This document shows positions 21,460-60,300 of a stretch of DNA of 64,000 nucleotides, piece by piece. Position numbers and translations under genes: made by a program. Positions within the stretch are counted from its first letter, which is position 1. Each line of letters begins with the position of its first letter. Source of the DNA: Gammaproteobacteria bacterium (lineage in GTDB: Bacteria > Pseudomonadota > Gammaproteobacteria > UBA12402); contig JAHJDF010000012.1 in the NCBI GenBank assembly GCA_018812595.1, positions 276 through 64,275 on the forward strand, in the 5' to 3' direction. The notes under the pieces are model-generated. The model was given only the letters and a program-made list of their open reading frames with translations. It did not search any database and was not told the origin of the DNA.

Positions 21460-22314
21460 ATGTCTCGAACTAAAACACCGATCTTCTTTTGTATTATTCG
21501 TACAAAAATGCCCGCAACAAAGTGGGCTGACGTCAATAGAATTGCAGCTAGAATTGCTGAAGAAATTTACGGATCCAAACAAGAACCAAAAATTGTTATC
21601 AAAAAACCCGATCTAGCCGCTTGTCTTACTCTGTTTGAAACAGAAGAAGATAAAAAACTCGCGAAAAATATATATTCATATTTTGAAAAAAATGGGCAAT
21701 ACAGGCCTGATATCTACGATTGTTCCAAAGTGCCGCCAATAGCTTTTAAAGTAAAAACATATCTAGAAGCGCATAAATTTGAACCTTCACTCGTTTCGCT
21801 AAACATCACCTTATTTCCAGGGCTGTACTTACCCGGCGTTAATGTTAGTCATGTAAAATTCTTTGAAAATAATTGGTTAGTTGTGGAATCAAAGGCAAAT
21901 CAAAATACGGTTGGGCAAAAATGCTCCTCACAGCCTTCTATTCAAAAAAGTTTTGAAAGATCATCAAACCGTGCCACTCAAGGAATATTAGAAATTAATG
22001 ATTTTTTCACTGTGAAAAAGCCTCTAAAAAGGAAAAGGAAAGGGAAAAAAAACCCCCCATCCTCATCCTTATTCAATTATGGATTTAGCCATGAAAGAAA
22101 TGGGCAAAATTACTTATTCTCGGACAACTCGGAAAATGGTAGCCCAAACACGAACCAATCAATCTATTCGACACCAGAAGAACCTATATCTTATAAGAGA
22201 AGAAGGGTTGTATTAGATGAGCCTCTTGAAAGCGATGAGTCTTTTATTCCAGAGACACCCCCTTCCCAATGCAGCTCACCGGTAATTCCCTGTAAATTTT
22301 TATTAAAAAAATAA
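21460..22314 (+). CDS. Hypothetical protein with basic NLS-like clusters, candidate effector
   Basis: AT-rich ORF with KKPLKRKRKGKK and KRRR clusters and an S/P/E-rich C-terminus. No enzymatic motif. Start is uncertain (alternative Met at about 21509). Confidence 0.4.
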   Translation: MSRTKTPIFFCIIRTKMPATKWADVNRIAARIAEEIYGSKQEPKIVIKKPDLAACLTLFETEEDKKLAKNIYSYFEKNGQYRPDIYDCSKVPPIAFKVKTYLEAHKFEPSLVSLNITLFPGLYLPGVNVSHVKFFENNWLVVESKANQNTVGQKCSSQPSIQKSFERSSNRATQGILEINDFFTVKKPLKRKRKGKKNPPSSSLFNYGFSHERNGQNYLFSDNSENGSPNTNQSIYSTPEEPISYKRRRVVLDEPLESDESFIPETPPSQCSSPVIPCKFLLKK

Positions 22315-22505
22315 AAGACGATTACGGTGCTTCCAGGTGCTACTGCAATTCGATTTTCCCAAAGCATAAATTCGTTTGTTTCTCTGGATTGTATATTCCT
22401 CGTCATCCCCTCCCACTCCCTCGTCATCCCTGTATGTGTTAAGTCATTCGTTGACAGCCCCCGTATTTAGTCATTCCTAGCTGCATCACTGAATCAATAA
22501 ATTGC

Positions 22506-22862
22506 TAGGAGAAATGCAAATTACAACAGATTTCTTCACGTAAATTCGACGCTTACATCCTTGTTATCTCTGATGCAAAACTAAAATGGGTCTAATAACC
22601 CATGTCCCGAAGGGACAACACAAGTAGGAGAAATGCAAGTTGCAATAGATCCCTTCACGTAAATTCCACGCTTTTATCCTTGTTATCTTTGATGCAAAAC
22701 TAGAATGGGTCTAATAACCCATGTCCCGAAGGGACAACACAAGTAGGAGAAATGCAAATTACAATAGATCCCTTCACGTAAATTCGACGCTTACATCTTT
22801 GTTATCTCTGATGCAAAACTAAAATGGGTCTAATAACCCATGTCCCGAAGGGACAACACAAG
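22506..22862. repeat. Three tandem copies of a 119-bp unit (taggagaaatgcaaattacaa...gggacaacacaag)
   Basis: Period 119 bp with copies starting at about 22506, 22625 and 22744, at about 95% identity. A fourth copy in inverted orientation lies at about 23527..23648. Confidence 0.9.
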
Positions 22863-22981
22863 ATAGCCCAGGGTACGTGCTTAAAACCTTTAGGTTTTAA
22901 GCGCGTACCCTGGGTTTAAAGACCACTAGCACGGCACCCTGAAGGGGTGCAACAGAAAAGATCTTTTGGCGCTTACGTTCT

Positions 22982-23434
22982 TTAATCCCATACATACCGT
23001 TCATCCCATTGCAAATGATATTGCCTCATCAAATGACGATATTCTTCTTGAAAACTGGTTCTCCGATGATGTTTCGCCTGATTCAATATATAAGTCTCCA
23101 ACGCGGTCAGATGCGTAGGACTAATCGAAAAAATCCCATAACCATTTTGCCAATGAAACCTCTGATAGAGAGGAGAATAAGCTTTTAACCATTTCGTAGA
23201 ACCCATTTTAATGGCTTTAACTAAATCCGATGAAGAGCATGTGCGCGGATGAATGATTGATAAGTGAACGTGATCAGTGACAGAACCCGCTTTCAATAAA
23301 ATCCCCTTTTGATTTTTAATAATCCCATTCATATAAGCATGTAATTTATCTCGAATATCATCGCCAATGTTTGGTTCCCTATTTTTTGTTGAAAAAACCA
23401 AGTGCACTAGAATGTTTGAGATCGATTGCGGCAT
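22982..23434 (-). CDS. REP-associated tyrosine transposase (RAYT, IS200/IS605 TnpA-like, Y1 HUH)
   Basis: 150 aa with the HUH motif HVHLSI and a C-terminal catalytic Tyr context (TYILNQ). Flanked directly by palindromic hairpins. Confidence 0.75.
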   Translation of the reverse strand: MPQSISNILVHLVFSTKNREPNIGDDIRDKLHAYMNGIIKNQKGILLKAGSVTDHVHLSIIHPRTCSSSDLVKAIKMGSTKWLKAYSPLYQRFHWQNGYGIFSISPTHLTALETYILNQAKHHRRTSFQEEYRHLMRQYHLQWDERYVWD

Positions 23435-23832
23435 CTTGTTAAACCCCTTCAGGGTTTGAATTTGCGAGGTGTTTTATTCCCAGGGTACGTGCTTAAAACC
23501 TAAAGGTTTTAAGCACGTACCCTGGGCTATCTTGTGTTGTCCCTTCGGGACATGGGTTATTAGACCCATTCTAGTTTTGCATCAAAGATAACAAAGATGT
23601 AAGCGTGGAATTTACGTGAAGGGATCTATTGCAACTTGCATTTCTCTCAGCAATTTATTGATTCACCGCTAACGAATGATTTAACACATACATGGATGAC
23701 GGAACAGACCTGGATCCTTAGCTGCAGCTAGGGATTACAAAATAATCGAAGCAACAATCCTTTTAACAGCAAAAGACTTTGGAAACAAAAGCTCTACAAT
23801 CCCATCGTTTATATTTATTAAAGGTCTTCTTT

Positions 23833-24270
23833 ATGCTTGCGCTACTACAACGCGTCACTCATGCGGATGTTCACGTGAATAAAAAAATCATCGGAGAGAT
23901 TCAATCCGGCATTTTGGTTTTTCTTGCTGTTGAGAGAGAAGATCAACAAAAAAATGCGGATCGATTGCTGGAACGCATTCTGTCTTACCGCGTTTTTGGA
24001 GATGAAAACGATCGAATGAATTTAAGTGTTAAAGACGTGCAAGGCGGGTTGTTATTGATCCCTCAATTTACGCTAGCTGCTGATACACGATCCGGCACTC
24101 GCCCCGGCTTTAGTAAGGCTGCGCCCCCACAACTTGGAGAAGATCTGTTCAAATATTTCGTTGAACAAGCTCAATCAAAATACAGTTCAATCGCGACCGG
24201 TCAATTTGGCGCTTATATGCAAATTAACCTCTGCAATGACGGCCCTACGACATTTTTATTACAAGCATGA
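23833..24270 (+). CDS. dtd: D-aminoacyl-tRNA deacylase
   Basis: MLALLQRVTHADVHV, SQFTLAAD and GPTTFLLQ blocks parallel E. coli Dtd. Start set at the internal Met, giving 146 aa; the track ORF begins at 23779. Confidence 0.88.
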   Translation: MLALLQRVTHADVHVNKKIIGEIQSGILVFLAVEREDQQKNADRLLERILSYRVFGDENDRMNLSVKDVQGGLLLIPQFTLAADTRSGTRPGFSKAAPPQLGEDLFKYFVEQAQSKYSSIATGQFGAYMQINLCNDGPTTFLLQA

Positions 24271-24294: not shown

Positions 24295-24500
24295 TTCTTG
24301 CCGTCATTCCCGCGAAAGCTAAGGATCCATTTCTTGGGGTTGTTGCAGTCCAATTTTTTTCAAGGCATTTATGGTGCGTAATTCGTTGATTTCTCTGGAT
24401 CCCCGCTTTCGCGGGGATGACGGAGATGCTTTCGCGGGGATGACGGAGATGCTTTCGCGGGGATGACGGAGACGCTTTCGCGGGGATGACTTCGATCTGG
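24295..24500. repeat. REP element plus about four tandem 21-bp repeats (gctttcgcggggatgacggagat)
   Basis: Visible head-to-tail iteration at about 24405..24490, between dtd and mlaA. Confidence 0.85.
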
Positions 24501-33265: not shown

Positions 33266-33345
33266 CTCCCTCATCGTCATGCCCGCGACCCTCACCGTCA
33301 TTCCCGCACAGGCGGGAATCCAGGTCCGCTCTGTCATTCCCGCGC
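33250..33345. repeat. REP/MITE elements
   Basis: cgtcatgcccgcgaccctcaccgtcattcccgcacaggcgggaatccagg ... tgtcattcccgcgcc. Confidence 0.8.
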
Positions 33346-36689: not shown

Positions 36690-37605
36690 ACCAATGAAAA
36701 CGAAAAAGAATTTTTACACACCGCTTTACTGGCCTTTCTGGATTTTGATTTTTTTCTTTTGGTGTATAGCTCATTTGCCTTATCGCTTTCAAATGACTTT
36801 AGGAAAAGGATTAGGCCTACTCCTGCATCGTTTTGCGAAACGAATGAAACGCATTGCACAAATCAATTTAGATCTTTGCTTTCCTGAACTCAGTATTGAT
36901 GAACGAGCACAGTTGTTACGTAAAAATTTTATTTCTGTAGGAAAAGGGATTTTTGAAACCGCTCTAGCATGGTGGGGCTCAGACGAGCAGTTGCAACGCT
37001 TTGCAACCTTCCACGGAGAGGAATACTTAAACCAATCATTGGCGGAAGGAAAAGGTGTTATTTTTCTAGGCGGTCATTTCACATCACTTGAATTAGTCGG
37101 TCGTCTTTACGCAATGCGTAAACCGTTTGCCATTGTGTATCGAGAACACAAAATTCCTTTTGTGAATTTCATCATGACGCGTCATTACAAAAAGATTTAT
37201 GCAGAACTCATCGAACGAAACAACATTCGAGCCGCTTTGAAGAGATTAAAACGAGGAGAAATTGTGTGGTTTACTCCGGACGTCGATGCCGGCCATTTTC
37301 ACAATGTTTTTGTCCCATTCTTCAATGTCTTGGCTTCTTCAGTCATTGCAACATCACGCCTTGCTGCATTAACGAAAGCAAAGGTCTGCCCGGTCTATTT
37401 CTTCAGACAAGAAAACGACGAAGGTTATGAAATAAAACTTCAACCGCCACTCACAGATTTTCCAACGGATGACGTTGAACAAGACACCGCACGCATCAAC
37501 AAAATTACAGAAGAAGCTGTGCGCCAACACCCCGATCAATACATGTGGCAATACATGCGATTTAAAACCCGTCCCGAAGGCGAAGAACGGTTTTATAAAA
37601 AATAA
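36679..37605 (+). CDS. lpxL: Lipid A biosynthesis lauroyl/myristoyl acyltransferase (LpxL/HtrB family)
   Basis: N-terminal TM helix plus HtrB-like blocks and an LPLAT H(x4)D-type region. 308 aa. Confidence 0.8.
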   Translation: MGFKPMKTKKNFYTPLYWPFWILIFFFWCIAHLPYRFQMTLGKGLGLLLHRFAKRMKRIAQINLDLCFPELSIDERAQLLRKNFISVGKGIFETALAWWGSDEQLQRFATFHGEEYLNQSLAEGKGVIFLGGHFTSLELVGRLYAMRKPFAIVYREHKIPFVNFIMTRHYKKIYAELIERNNIRAALKRLKRGEIVWFTPDVDAGHFHNVFVPFFNVLASSVIATSRLAALTKAKVCPVYFFRQENDEGYEIKLQPPLTDFPTDDVEQDTARINKITEEAVRQHPDQYMWQYMRFKTRPEGEERFYKK

Positions 37606-37662
37606 CGTTTTACCTTGAAAATTGTGTGGCAATCGCACAATTTTCAATGTAAATTACCTCTT

Positions 37663-38805: not shown

Positions 38806-38847
38806 ATTGATACGCGAAAACAGCTTCTCCTCAGCAATTCTCGAACT

Positions 38848-39000
38848 GATTTTCCAACGGATGACGTTGAACAAGACACCGCACGCATCAACAAAATTAC
38901 AGAGAAAGCGGTGCGCCAATACCCCGATCAATACATGTGGCAATACATGCGATTTAAAACCCGCCCCGAAGGCGAAGAACGGTTTTATCGGAAATGACAA
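38848..39000 (+). repeat. Second, about 93%-identical copy of the lpxL 3' end (last about 50 codons plus stop)
   Basis: Direct duplication of 37455..37607 flanking the COG1373 ATPase gene. Reads in frame to a TGA. Confidence 0.85.
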
Positions 39001-41603: not shown

Positions 41604-41683
41604 TCATTCCCGCGCATTTCGTCATCCCCCTATTCCTCGTCATTCCCGCGAAAGCGGGAATCCAGTTCTACAGGCATAACACC

Positions 41684-44387: not shown

Positions 44388-44456
44388 GTAGAGACGCGAT
44401 TCATCGCGCCTCAAGACATACACCGAGAAAAGACGCGATAAATCGCGTCTCTACGT
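44388..44456. terminator. Nested palindromes of the GAGACGCGATnAATCGCGTCTCTACG family between convergent GT2 genes (probable bidirectional terminator)
   Basis: cgtagagacgcgattcatcgcgcctc ... agacgcgataaatcgcgtctctacg followed by ttt. Outer 14-bp arms are complementary. Confidence 0.45.
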
Positions 44457-45408: not shown

Positions 45409-45435
45409 AGACGCGATAAACTGCGTCTCTACGTT
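45409..45435. repeat. Palindrome of the GAGACGCGATnAATCGCGTCTCTACG family
   Basis: gaagacgcgataaactgcgtctctacg. Confidence 0.7.
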
Positions 45436-47622: not shown

Positions 47623-47649
47623 GGAGACGCAATAAATCGCGTCTCTACG
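47623..47649. terminator. Palindrome ggagacgcaataaatcgcgtctctacg immediately downstream of ftsZ
   Basis: Same family as 44388, 45409 and 12663; follows the ftsZ stop. Confidence 0.4.
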
Positions 47650-48866: not shown

Positions 48867-49185
48867 CGCAGCATGCTCCATAGCTAACTTAAATCCCCAA
48901 AAGAACAATAGGGGCTTATCTTTTGGGCCAGCAATCTATCATTTCTAAATACCAAACTTAATAACAATTTAAAGTATTTAACCGTAGGTAAAAACCGGCT
49001 TAACACATATAAGAATTGTAAAGATAAAACCATTGAATGCCCCGAAGGGACAGGAGTTGCTTGATTTTCCGTTTCAATATTTCTGTCAACGAATTACTTA
49101 ACACACACAAGGATGACAAATATGTAGTATTTTCTTAAAAACAATATGCCAAAAATTACTGAATAATAAAAAAGGAGGCCGTGTT

Positions 49186-60039: not shown

Positions 60040-60300
60040 ACCCTGCCATCATTCCCACAACCCCCCATCGTCATCCCTAGCTGCAGCTAAGGATCCAGAA
60101 TTGATATCTTTCCTGGATTCCCGCCTACGCGGGAATGACGGCTTTAAAAGCCATAACAAAGATCACTTGGAAAGTGGATTCCCGCCTACGCGGGAATGAC
60201 GGACTACGCGGGAATGACGGACTATGCGGGAATGACGGACTATGCGGGAATGACGGAAGAAACATAGGACCCAGATCTCTTACCCGTCATCCCCGCCTTA
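60040..60300. repeat. REP cluster including about four tandem copies of an 18-bp unit (cgcgggaatgacggacta)
   Basis: cgtcatccctagctgcagctaaggatccag ... ctggattcccgcctacgcgggaatgacgg (two copies) then gactacgcgggaatgacgg iterated. ORFs 59990..60199 and 60135..60323 are repeat translations. Confidence 0.85.

Follow-up and report, generated by a model that had tools for sequence, protein, structure and literature searches.

A putative subclass 1.2 Y1 transposase gene between conserved inverted three-hairpin arms in a gammaproteobacterial contig

Layout of the element

The window is the whole stretch of DNA that was analysed, 64 kb of contig JAHJDF010000012.1 (assembly GCA_018812595.1) from a gammaproteobacterium of the lineage UBA12402. 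It carries a composite element at 22422–23701, in which tnpA, the gene for a 150-amino acid (aa) Y1 transposase of the HUH type, lies between two inverted arms. Each arm contains three hairpins (H1, H2 and H3), and such arms are found around homologous genes in other phyla. The original prediction had described the locus as the element of a tyrosine transposase associated with REPs (a RAYT; REP stands for repetitive extragenic palindrome). The layout was established with a repeat finder, a list of open reading frames (ORFs) and direct reading of the sequence. The core features are as follows.

22982–23434, minus strand: tnpA, ORF of 150 aa (ORF list, Pfam Y1_Tnp)
23441–23552, minus strand, read toward the gene: upstream arm, with H1 at 23552–23538 (TGTCCCGAAGGGACA)
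23531–23527, minus strand: tag GATAG of the upstream arm
23526–23479, minus strand: H2 of the upstream arm; this is the right 48-nt palindrome (23479–23526, repeat finder), a perfect 22-bp stem with a 4-nt loop (22 bp + 4 + 22 bp, loop TAAA)
23457–23441, minus strand: H3 of the upstream arm (AAACCCTGAAGGGGTTT), ending 6 nt before the ATG
22841–22950, plus strand, read toward the gene: downstream arm, with H1 at 22841–22855
22862–22866, plus strand: tag GATAG of the downstream arm
22867–22914, plus strand: H2 of the downstream arm; this is the left 48-nt palindrome (repeat finder), a 22-bp stem with one G.T pair and loop TTTA
22934–22950, plus strand: H3 of the downstream arm (GCACCCTGAAGGGGTGC)
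22506–22862: tandem array of three 119-nt units, 92–97% identity (repeat finder)
about 23531–23646: single 119-nt unit, inverted, in the right arm (repeat finder)

The two 48-nt palindromes are 94% identical, and as their loops are reverse complements they stand in inverted orientation. The prediction that both are perfect hairpins holds for the right one; the left has a single G.T pair, which is kept in all other copies of the element. The 22-mer of the hairpin stem has four matches in the window, the two sides of the two palindromes, against 0.00 expected. Each arm consists of H1 (TGTCCCGAAGGGACA), a linker (AACACAAGATAG), a lengthened H2 and H3 (AAACCCTGAAGGGGTTT or GCACCCTGAAGGGGTGC), which fits the three-hairpin module of the family described below. 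Folded as single-stranded DNA, both arms form H1, H2 and H3 (z = -7.7 downstream and -10.1 upstream). The gene stands between cognate hairpins of its own, inverted relative to each other, which is the REPtron-like layout that had been predicted.

The inverted repeat of the element measures 174 nt at 95% identity (22747–22920 and 23473–23646), in agreement with the imperfect terminal repeats of about 170 bp first noted, and the 119-nt unit is indeed triplicated on one side only. Each unit holds one H1 copy and a weak outward-pointing hairpin that resembles a terminator (ATGGGTTATTAGACCCAT, then a T-run). The junctions between units read CAAG/TAGGAG and the junction between the array and H2 reads CAAGA/TAG/CCCAGGG, TAG being common to both. 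This common TAG is consistent with slippage at microhomology and, more speculatively, is compatible also with cleavage beside the tag. Beyond H1 and one small hairpin, the 119-nt unit folds weakly as DNA (z = -1.7 and -2.3). A small-RNA role for the unit was considered and rejected, given the weak DNA fold and the lack of an Rfam match beyond its H1 part. A sigma-70 scan of the element found no site where 4.1 were expected, so no promoter can be proposed for it.

The transposase

The protein is a Y1 HUH transposase, as first recognised. It matches Pfam PF01797 (Y1_Tnp) at 73.6 bits against a cutoff of 23 (E=2e-20), and residues 54–60 read DHVHLSI, which contains the predicted HVHLSI. The HUH motif is H55-V-H57, and further motifs are W95-Q96 and Y115-x3-Q119-x2-H122-H123 (YILNQAKHH). 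Alignment to ISDra2 TnpA places the equivalent of the catalytic tyrosine at Y115 in YILNQ, opposite the tyrosine of YIESQ, and not at the GYG tyrosine. The solved Y132F mutant of ISDra2 is among the fold matches, and the YIESQ tyrosine is presumably this Y132. The nearest solved structures by sequence are TnpA proteins of the Deinococcus ISDra2 type; the RAYT of E. coli was absent from the sequence search of solved structures. An AlphaFold (AF2) model with a predicted local distance difference test score of 81 gave ISDra2, IS608 and Sulfolobus TnpA as its best Foldseek matches, the ISDra2 and IS608 TnpA-DNA complexes leading. The probability was 1.00 for 2xm3, 2vic and 2a6m, and the E. coli RAYT 4er8 ranked 30th. 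Both by closest structure and by best sequence match the enzyme therefore resembles the IS200/IS608/ISDra2 transposases.

More than 3000 homologues were found in the database search, and almost all of the 120 matches listed are exactly 150 aa long. Among the matches listed, the best share 63–69% identity with the window protein, and the sources include Verrucomicrobiota, Planctomycetota, Deferribacteres and Gammaproteobacteria. In a family alignment of 23 sequences, which includes the window protein itself, that protein has all 58 invariant columns, and the mean column identity across phyla is 85%. The invariant residues include D54-H55-x-H57, W95-Q96, Y115, Q119 and H122-H123. The conserved C-terminal tail, which ends in ERYVWD, adds F128, Q129, E131, Y132, R133, E145, Y147, V148, W149 and D150.

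Quentin et al. (2018) described a TnpA-Y1 subclass 1.2 with the motifs DH[IV]H, WQ and Y-x3-Q-x2-HH, a median length of 148 aa and a C-terminal domain of 30 aa. By motifs, length and tail, compared with Table 1 of that study, the window enzyme is assigned to this subclass. The class 2 enzymes, to which the RAYTs belong, carry Y-x3-NP instead (Quentin et al. 2018). With the subclass 1.2 signature in place of Y-x3-NP, the protein is a Y1 HUH transposase but no canonical (class 2) RAYT, and the RAYT identity first proposed does not stand.

Subclass 1.2 has been described as low-copy with divergent copies, marked 'REP: no' and generally without terminal structures of the IS200 type (Quentin et al. 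2018). The conserved inverted arms of the clade and the locations of about 99% identity reported below, at least two in number, contradict this published description; they do not contradict the membership, which is based on sequence. Bertels et al. (2017) reported a RAYT-like 'IS200 Group 3' with no duplicates, never on plasmids and with abundant flanking 16-mers; this may be the same group. No close homologue was found on 72,556 plasmids. Three genomes with two copies hold paralogues of 57%, 72% and 95% identity, which are mostly divergent. The IS200 equivalog NCBIfam NF033573 is barely passed (57.4 against a cutoff of 55 bits), a match that speaks for an autonomous insertion sequence (IS), a reading weighed below with the copies of the element.

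Conserved arms in other phyla

The flanks of 80 homologous loci were examined on contigs from one genome per species of the Genome Taxonomy Database (GTDB). The loci come from at least six phyla: Verrucomicrobiota, Planctomycetota, Chloroflexota, Bacteroidota, Acidobacteriota and Proteobacteria. In many of them the best upstream hairpin is CCCAGGGC-AAC-GCCCTGGG, ending about 45 nt before the ATG (modal position -45), and the best downstream hairpin is CCCAGGGC-GTT-GCCCTGGG, starting about 47 nt after the stop codon (modal position +47). These H2-type hairpins are in inverted orientation, as in the window, where the upstream palindrome ends exactly at -45 and shares the CCCAGGG foot of the family. 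Local alignment of the flanks showed that the ORF typically lies within an inverted repeat of about 85–100 nt, one side of which runs from about -3 to -90 and the other from about +5 to +90. Homologues in other phyla retain CCCAGGG-type arms whatever the host.

The family arm of about 88 nt has a fixed order toward the gene: H1 (GCCCC-AAC-GGGGC), a linker ending in (G)ATAG, H2 (CCCAGGGC-nnn-GCCCTGGG), a spacer of about 22 nt, and H3 (GCCC-TGAAA-GGGC, then GAAAT). In the arm alignment, the last two bases of the (G)ATAG tag at the 5' foot of H2, A and G, are invariant, and the second A of GATAG is nearly so. The 48-nt palindromes of the window are H2 with the stem lengthened to 22 bp from the 8 bp of the family.

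The paired structure is supported by covariation. Compensatory changes on both sides of a stem occur in 117 cells against 20.2 in shuffles (none of 500 reaching 117), with the limit that the H2 sequences had been pre-selected for a palindrome; H1 and H3 had not, and every H1 pair shows double changes. Pairing extends to 89.3% of cells, against at most 54% when the 3' partners are slid. A covariance model (R1) built from other phyla only has exactly two significant matches in the window, namely the downstream arm (46.9 bits, E=2e-10) and the upstream arm (41.0 bits, E=7e-9); in both, the H2 loop contains an insertion of 31 nt. Weak matches to H1 only occur inside the tandem array, at 22601–22665 and 22720–22784. 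At one homologous locus (L012:3580–3653) a tRNA gene lies about 35 nt past the outer end of the downstream arm, a single case that may be a coincidence.

Correspondence with the Rfam family RF01687

At the gathering threshold, the whole window has no Rfam match. When scanned by E-value, both arms match RF01687 (Acido-Lenti-1) symmetrically at 25.2 bits (E=0.0034), below the gathering score of 37 bits; the score is this low because H2 is lengthened. On 16 homologous loci, RF01687 gave 20 matches at or above the gathering score (37.9–58.8 bits against 37), in 9 of the 16 loci. A match always covers H2, linker and H1 on the strand reading away from the gene, which is the outer two-thirds of the arm. 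The Rfam motif consists of the same two hairpins: H2 with an 8-bp stem, a 12-nt linker starting CUA, and H1 with a 5-bp stem. It differs from the arms in being filed as a free-standing small RNA (sRNA) of two phyla, whereas the arms flank a Y1 gene in many phyla.

The motif was described as a probable non-coding RNA of Acidobacteria and Lentisphaerae of unknown function (Weinberg et al. 2010, PMC2864571). Its context was given only as 'sometimes near group II introns' (PMC2864571). The seed alignment in the supplement of the same paper (PMC2864571) contains same-strand tandem series with periods of 74, 110 and 115 nt, which resemble the 119-nt units of the window. The literature search found no paper that ties the Acido-Lenti-1 motif to a transposase, and the full-text search for the family hairpin sequence found no paper. 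About 55 of the seed copies, which are not independent of each other, come from the assembly NZ_ABCK01, a Lentisphaera genome record which we take to be Lentisphaera araneosa. A further 12 are spread over 0.13–5.62 Mb of NC_008009.1, an Acidobacteria chromosome record, presumably of Koribacter versatilis.

If the arms are RNA elements, they would be either the Acido-Lenti-1 sRNA or hairpins and terminators in the untranslated region that control tnpA, and not DNA substrates of the enzyme. The filing of RF01687 as an sRNA with covariation points in this direction. So does the distance of H3 from the gene: it ends 6 nt before the ATG in the window and a few to some tens of nt before it at other loci, which would suit translational control as in IS200. 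The outward terminator-like hairpins in the 119-nt units also fit. The arms are, however, exact mirror images in both orientations, and the relatives of the enzyme that they surround act on hairpins of single-stranded DNA. Their stem pairs comprise 933 Watson-Crick, 6 G.T and 4 A.C pairs, so that pairing is nearly pure Watson-Crick on both strands, unlike typical RNA helices. The RF01687 seed, whose copies are not independent, has 38 A.C against 8 G.U pairs on its annotated strand, and pairing is better on the other strand. Arms without the gene, solo or in doublets, are also found at unrelated intergenic sites and in viral contigs. The near-pure pairing of the arms and the A.C excess of the seed fit a DNA palindrome better than an RNA helix, and the A.C excess together with the tandem series suggests that RF01687 is a DNA repeat, possibly filed on the wrong strand. 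An RNA role in place of a DNA role is considered very unlikely.

Arms without the gene

The 450 kb of flanks of the 80 loci contain 99 extra arms and 22 gene-less head-to-head doublets. The inspected doublets have the order H1-GATAG-H2-H3, short spacer, H3'-H2'-CTATC-H1', and their two H2 hairpins are spaced by 109 nt, as expected if the ORF is absent and the arms are fused. Most extra arms lie within 500 nt of the gene; their density is 1.6 per kb in the nearest 250 nt and drops to about 0.01 per kb at distances above 1 kb. This clustering looks REPtron-like and dispersal is modest. Among 2.9 million viral contigs there were seven matches to the arm pattern. Two of them proved doubtful when inspected, and the rest comprised four clear arms and one full doublet. 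A search of the viral contigs for relatives of tnpA found none.

R1 had no match outside the element in the window. The hairpin of the window was searched for exactly in 185,579 GTDB species genomes, among which the source metagenome-assembled genome (MAG) is not included, and gave no match. In metagenomes of the Joint Genome Institute (JGI) the hairpin occurs on two contigs only, both of them ends of the same element, so that these scans show nothing beyond copies of the element. The original prediction had asked which repeat family a RAYT would mobilise here. As the 48-nt hairpin is found at copies of the element only in the available sequence of this organism, the idea of a RAYT mobilising a REP population is unsupported for this genome by the criterion that the original prediction itself had set.

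Host REP families and the outer ends

Outside the arms, the element ends in sequence related to a dispersed repeat of the host. The features concerned are as follows.

22422–22505: left outer terminal segment, with the REP half-site CGTCATCC(C) at 22422–22430 and the conserved terminus TGTATGTGTTAAGTCATTCGTT at 22431–22452
22453–22489: extra stretch of the left outer segment, without counterpart in the right arm; it overlaps a REP-variant copy at 22470–22495
23647–23701: right outer terminal segment, ending in AACGAATGATTTAACACATACA (terminus) and then TGGATGACG (REP half-site)
49083–49117, minus strand: solo outer terminus with REP half-site (GTCATCCTTGTGTGTGTTAAGTAATTCGTTGACA), intergenic, without tnpA or H2

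The host repeat is a CGTC-tagged REP (CGTCATTCCCGC-GAAA-GCGGGAATCCAG; general form CGTCATYCCCGC-nnnn-GCGGGRAT, then CCAG) with 12 full copies in the window, for example at 1527–1550, 24399–24422, 33296–33319, 41638–41661 and 62835–62858. Its half-sites CGTCATYCC number 30 against 0.7 expected. The REPs often form inverted doublets with the CGTCAT tags outermost, a repeat type which we take to be typical of Coxiella/Legionellales-like genomes. At the element, an outer inverted repeat of 31 nt (22422–22452 and 23671–23701) starts with CGTCATCC. The outermost ends, first noted as resembling the half-site of the dispersed family, are indeed half-sites of it. Most of the outer 84 nt on the left is made up by a half-REP array, with GTCATYC motifs at 22402, 22423, 22443 and 22470. 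The solo terminus at 49083–49117 may be the remnant of a former copy of the element; an H1-like sequence (GCCCCGAAGGGAC) lies about 45 nt from it.

These ends raise the question of whether the enzyme is after all a canonical RAYT partnered with the CGTC REP, the CGTCATCC ends being its recognition sites. The abundance of the REP and the inverted half-sites that abut both ends would suit such a partnership. Set against this are the missing class 2 motif, the different sequence of the 48-nt hairpin, also seen in the original prediction, and the REP-variant sequence inside the left arm, which makes the REPs look like neighbours or invaders. At the end of the copy joined to nagA, the sequence outside TGTATG is moreover a different part of the REP. 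Since homologues in other phyla keep their CCCAGGG-type arms whatever the repeats of the host, the CGTC REP is judged from sequence to be unrelated to the arms and not the cognate repeat of the enzyme. A partnership of this kind is highly improbable.

Several further repeats were noted in the window. REP half-sites alone form tandem arrays at 24405–24490, 60186–60257, and 9112–9175 with 12791–12854. These include 23-nt units (GCTTTCGCGGGGATGACGGAGAT, about four times, as three overlapping 40-nt copies with 23-nt spacing) and 18-nt units (CTACGCGGGAATGACGGA), an unusual amplification route for a REP family. Direct repeats of 154 nt (94%, 37453–37606 and 38845–38998, 1.4 kb apart) and of 109 nt (100%, 9057–9165 and 12736–12844, 3.7 kb apart) were found, the latter made of REP variants. 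A second dispersed palindrome, tagged GTAG (GTAGAGACGCGATTTATCGCGTCT), has five copies against none expected, at 16100–16123, 44388–44411, 44431–44454, 45409–45432 and 47625–47648. As these stand beside CGTC REPs in the window, both tagged families coexist here. Coexisting GTAG- and CGTC-tagged families have been reported in Coxiella burnetii (PMC3733652), and GTAG families have been described in Opitutus and Rhodopirellula as well (Di Nocera et al. 2013).

Copies, flanks and mobility

The identical protein occurs on other contigs of strains that are 97–100% identical to the window, with four types of flank: a 284-aa ORF, dtd, nagA and OmpA. In the window the 284-aa ORF is joined to dtd, whereas contig L001 joins nagA to dtd. 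In one MAG, contigs with the OmpA and dtd flanks overlap in the 3' region of tnpA and are probably adjacent; ends of the OmpA and nagA types occur in one JGI sample, and one metagenome assembly has three flank types. The four types point to at least two locations with recombination between copies, or else to assembly ambiguity. The flanks imply that a composite of 1.05–1.5 kb is present at two or more genomic locations. The number of 119-nt units also varies: three and one in the window, one and one in L001, at least three in L002, and, on the arm at the 5' side of tnpA, three in L003 and two in L086. In another MAG of the same species (L092:1–692, compared with window positions 22628–23900) the segment with tnpA is turned round with respect to the dtd flank, an inversion that could be a recombinational flip between the long inverted arms or an assembly artefact. 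The 284-aa ORF (21460–22314) adjoins the element; it matches nothing in Pfam or NCBIfam, includes the basic stretch KRKRKGKK, and is conserved exactly on nine contigs read in the look-up.

Across the four flanks, homology always includes TGTATGTGTTAA. In the copies with the OmpA flank (L003 and L086), homology with the window starts at TCCGTCATCCA/TGTATG. The CGTCATCC half-site precedes the shared sequence at three ends, and a full REP (CGTCATTCCCGCTTTCGCGGGGAT/TGTATG) does so at the nagA end, so the composite occupies the place of the centre of a CGTC-REP doublet. The four flanks do not allow a fixed short target motif to be defined. Look-ups with dtd and the 284-aa protein found no empty site, every carrying contig running into the element or ending before it, so that no insertion footprint or target duplication can be established.

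One explanation of these data is an autonomous IS of the IS200 group with atypical inverted ends, in which arm, tnpA and arm would copy themselves as a unit and the doublets would be derivatives resembling miniature inverted-repeat transposable elements. Beside the equivalog match, the identical protein in four flank types (three within one metagenome assembly), the within-genome pair at 95% identity elsewhere and the breaking of contigs at the element speak for it. The breaks were rejected as proof of multiple copies, because the internal inverted repeat (at least 174 nt) alone is expected to break short-read assemblies. The family is low-copy in complete or long assemblies, many loci lie inside contigs of 0.1–8.8 Mb, and no close relative was found on plasmids or viral contigs. 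Members of IS200/IS605 have asymmetric same-strand hairpins without terminal inverted repeats, in contrast to the long inverted repeats here. The standard IS200/IS605 with a tnpB partner, named as an alternative in the original prediction, does not match the locus either: tnpA is the only gene between the arms, whose inverted orientation is not IS200-like. An autonomous IS is considered unlikely.

The second location could also have arisen without this enzyme, through homologous recombination between REP arrays or through movement of a cargo between inverted CGTC REPs by an unseen REP transposase. This explanation can coexist with the reading favoured below, and its likelihood is no part of the sum to one of the other readings. 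The shared unit ends in REP half-sites, with one full REP, and a reconstruction gives CGTCAT-stem-loop-stem-AT, element, AT-stem-loop-stem-ATGACG, the centre of a REP doublet. All three pairings of the dtd flank with other flanks are seen among strains of 99–100% identity, and the inverted tnpA segment in L092 and the solo terminus with half-REP at 49083–49117 also speak for it. Counting against it, the window showed no REP-specific transposase, REP doublets with a 1.3-kb cargo are not documented, and some of the joins may be assembly artefacts. It is rated as quite unlikely.

Relation to known systems

The systems closest in organisation are TnpA-REP of E. coli and the REPIN-RAYT systems of Pseudomonas (PMC3333891, PMC3116915, PMC5581495), REPINs being doublets of inverted REPs. 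As there, a Y1 HUH gene is flanked by cognate inverted hairpin repeats with a short conserved tag at the 5' foot of the hairpin (GTAG in RAYT systems, (G)ATAG here). Gene-less inverted doublets, low gene copy number and absence from plasmids are further likenesses. Several features are unlike RAYT systems. The enzyme appears to be of class 1, subclass 1.2 (Y-x3-Q-x2-HH, 150 aa, conserved tail) and not of class 2 with Y-x3-NP, and the arm of the window's family is a three-hairpin module of about 88 nt in place of a single REP. The 5' GT[AG]G tag is absent, (G)ATAG occupying the position of GTAG. Extra copies cluster near the gene with modest dispersed numbers, and none is dispersed in the window.

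The likeness to IS200/IS605 lies in the minimal tnpA-only size (about 630 bp for arm, gene and arm in the window's family) and, for IS200, in hairpins that adjoin the gene, one of them close to the start codon. The IS200/IS605 elements have two similar same-strand hairpins instead of mirror-image ends, and insertion 3' of a fixed tetra- or pentanucleotide is one of their features. Here the inverted ends measure at least 174 nt, and about 88 nt in relatives; the terminal inverted repeats of the window element as a whole span 280–520 nt. There is no tnpB, and the family is mostly single- or low-copy.

A Y1 gene between terminal inverted repeats, in some cases forming small repeat families, is also the plan of the TIRYTs or TIRtrons (Di Nocera et al. 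2013, PMC3733652). All 26 TIRYTs classified belong to subclasses 2.1, 2.2 and 2.5, and many have a C-terminal helix-turn-helix and the repeat motif GGGGWSAS (Quentin et al. 2018). Neither these subclasses nor the helix-turn-helix or the motif apply to the window element.

Interpretation and proposed mechanism

The favoured reading, to which we give a probability of roughly 0.6, is that the window element is a locally elaborated and duplicated copy of a conserved subclass 1.2 unit of gene plus arms, a REPtron/REPIN-like system built on a different Y1 class. It draws on the anatomy and conservation of the arms, their covariation, the gene-less derivatives, the variable unit number and the multiple flanks, while what it says on how the enzyme binds and cleaves, on which strand it uses and on how the composite was moved stays conditional.

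By analogy with IS608 and ISDra2 TnpA and with E. coli TnpA-REP, the enzyme would bind the H2 hairpin on single-stranded DNA. It would then read the adjacent tag and cut and rejoin single strands through Y115 and a metal site formed by H55 and H57. One of the models for this mechanism, E. coli TnpA-REP, cleaves and recombines bacterial interspersed mosaic elements in vitro. Through cutting and rejoining, arms would be copied or moved, which would yield the gene-less arms, solo or in doublets, that occur beside homologues and in viral contigs. This behaviour would be closer to that of a RAYT with REPINs than to that of a self-copying IS. In the lineage of the window, the H2 stem would have been lengthened from 8 to 22 bp with the CCCAGGG foot and the GATAG tag retained, and the outer part of the arm containing H1 would have been tandemly amplified into 119-nt units, one to three or more per side. 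The unit lies between inverted half-site arrays of the unrelated CGTC-tagged REP of the host.

Several points weigh against the favoured reading. The chemistry of a subclass 1.2 enzyme is inferred by analogy with other Y1 classes, and the covariation test used pre-selected H2 sequences. Genome-wide dispersal rests on few observations and on Rfam seed coordinates. No solo arm or doublet was found in about 80 kb of sequence of this organism, so the enzyme may be without a dispersed partner population here. The near-identical second location looks IS-like. The duplicated unit reaches far past the arms, which arm-directed cleavage leaves unexplained, and the alternative flank joins may in part be artefacts of assembly at a 1.3-kb repeat that itself contains inverted repeats.

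A more far-reaching form of the favoured reading is held tentatively, at somewhat less than even odds. RF01687 would be the single-stranded-DNA recognition module of a REPIN-like repeat maintained by subclass 1.2. The window element, with its lengthened hairpin, amplified H1 units and duplicated gene-bearing unit, would represent a reversion to IS-like behaviour.

Significance

The kind of system, a Y1 enzyme with flanking palindromes, is known already. Three points appear to be new: the link with subclass 1.2, the finding that the arms correspond to an orphan Rfam family, and the elaborated architecture in the window. If the more far-reaching form of the reading is true, there would be a further partnership of transposase and palindrome spanning phyla, carried by an IS200-like enzyme of 150 aa. 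The published statement that subclass 1.2 lacks associated hairpins is revised by the arms, and a re-examination of the Rfam sRNA family RF01687 as a DNA element is suggested. For annotation, the arms account for a palindromic repeat that recurs in MAGs of Verrucomicrobiota, Planctomycetota and others, and for contig breaks at the locus. Only class 2 enzymes, the RAYTs, have been tied to REPs and REPINs so far. A minimal conserved class 1 enzyme with a defined partner of about 88 nt and natural doublets would offer a compact in vitro system for studying recognition, cleavage site and strand choice.

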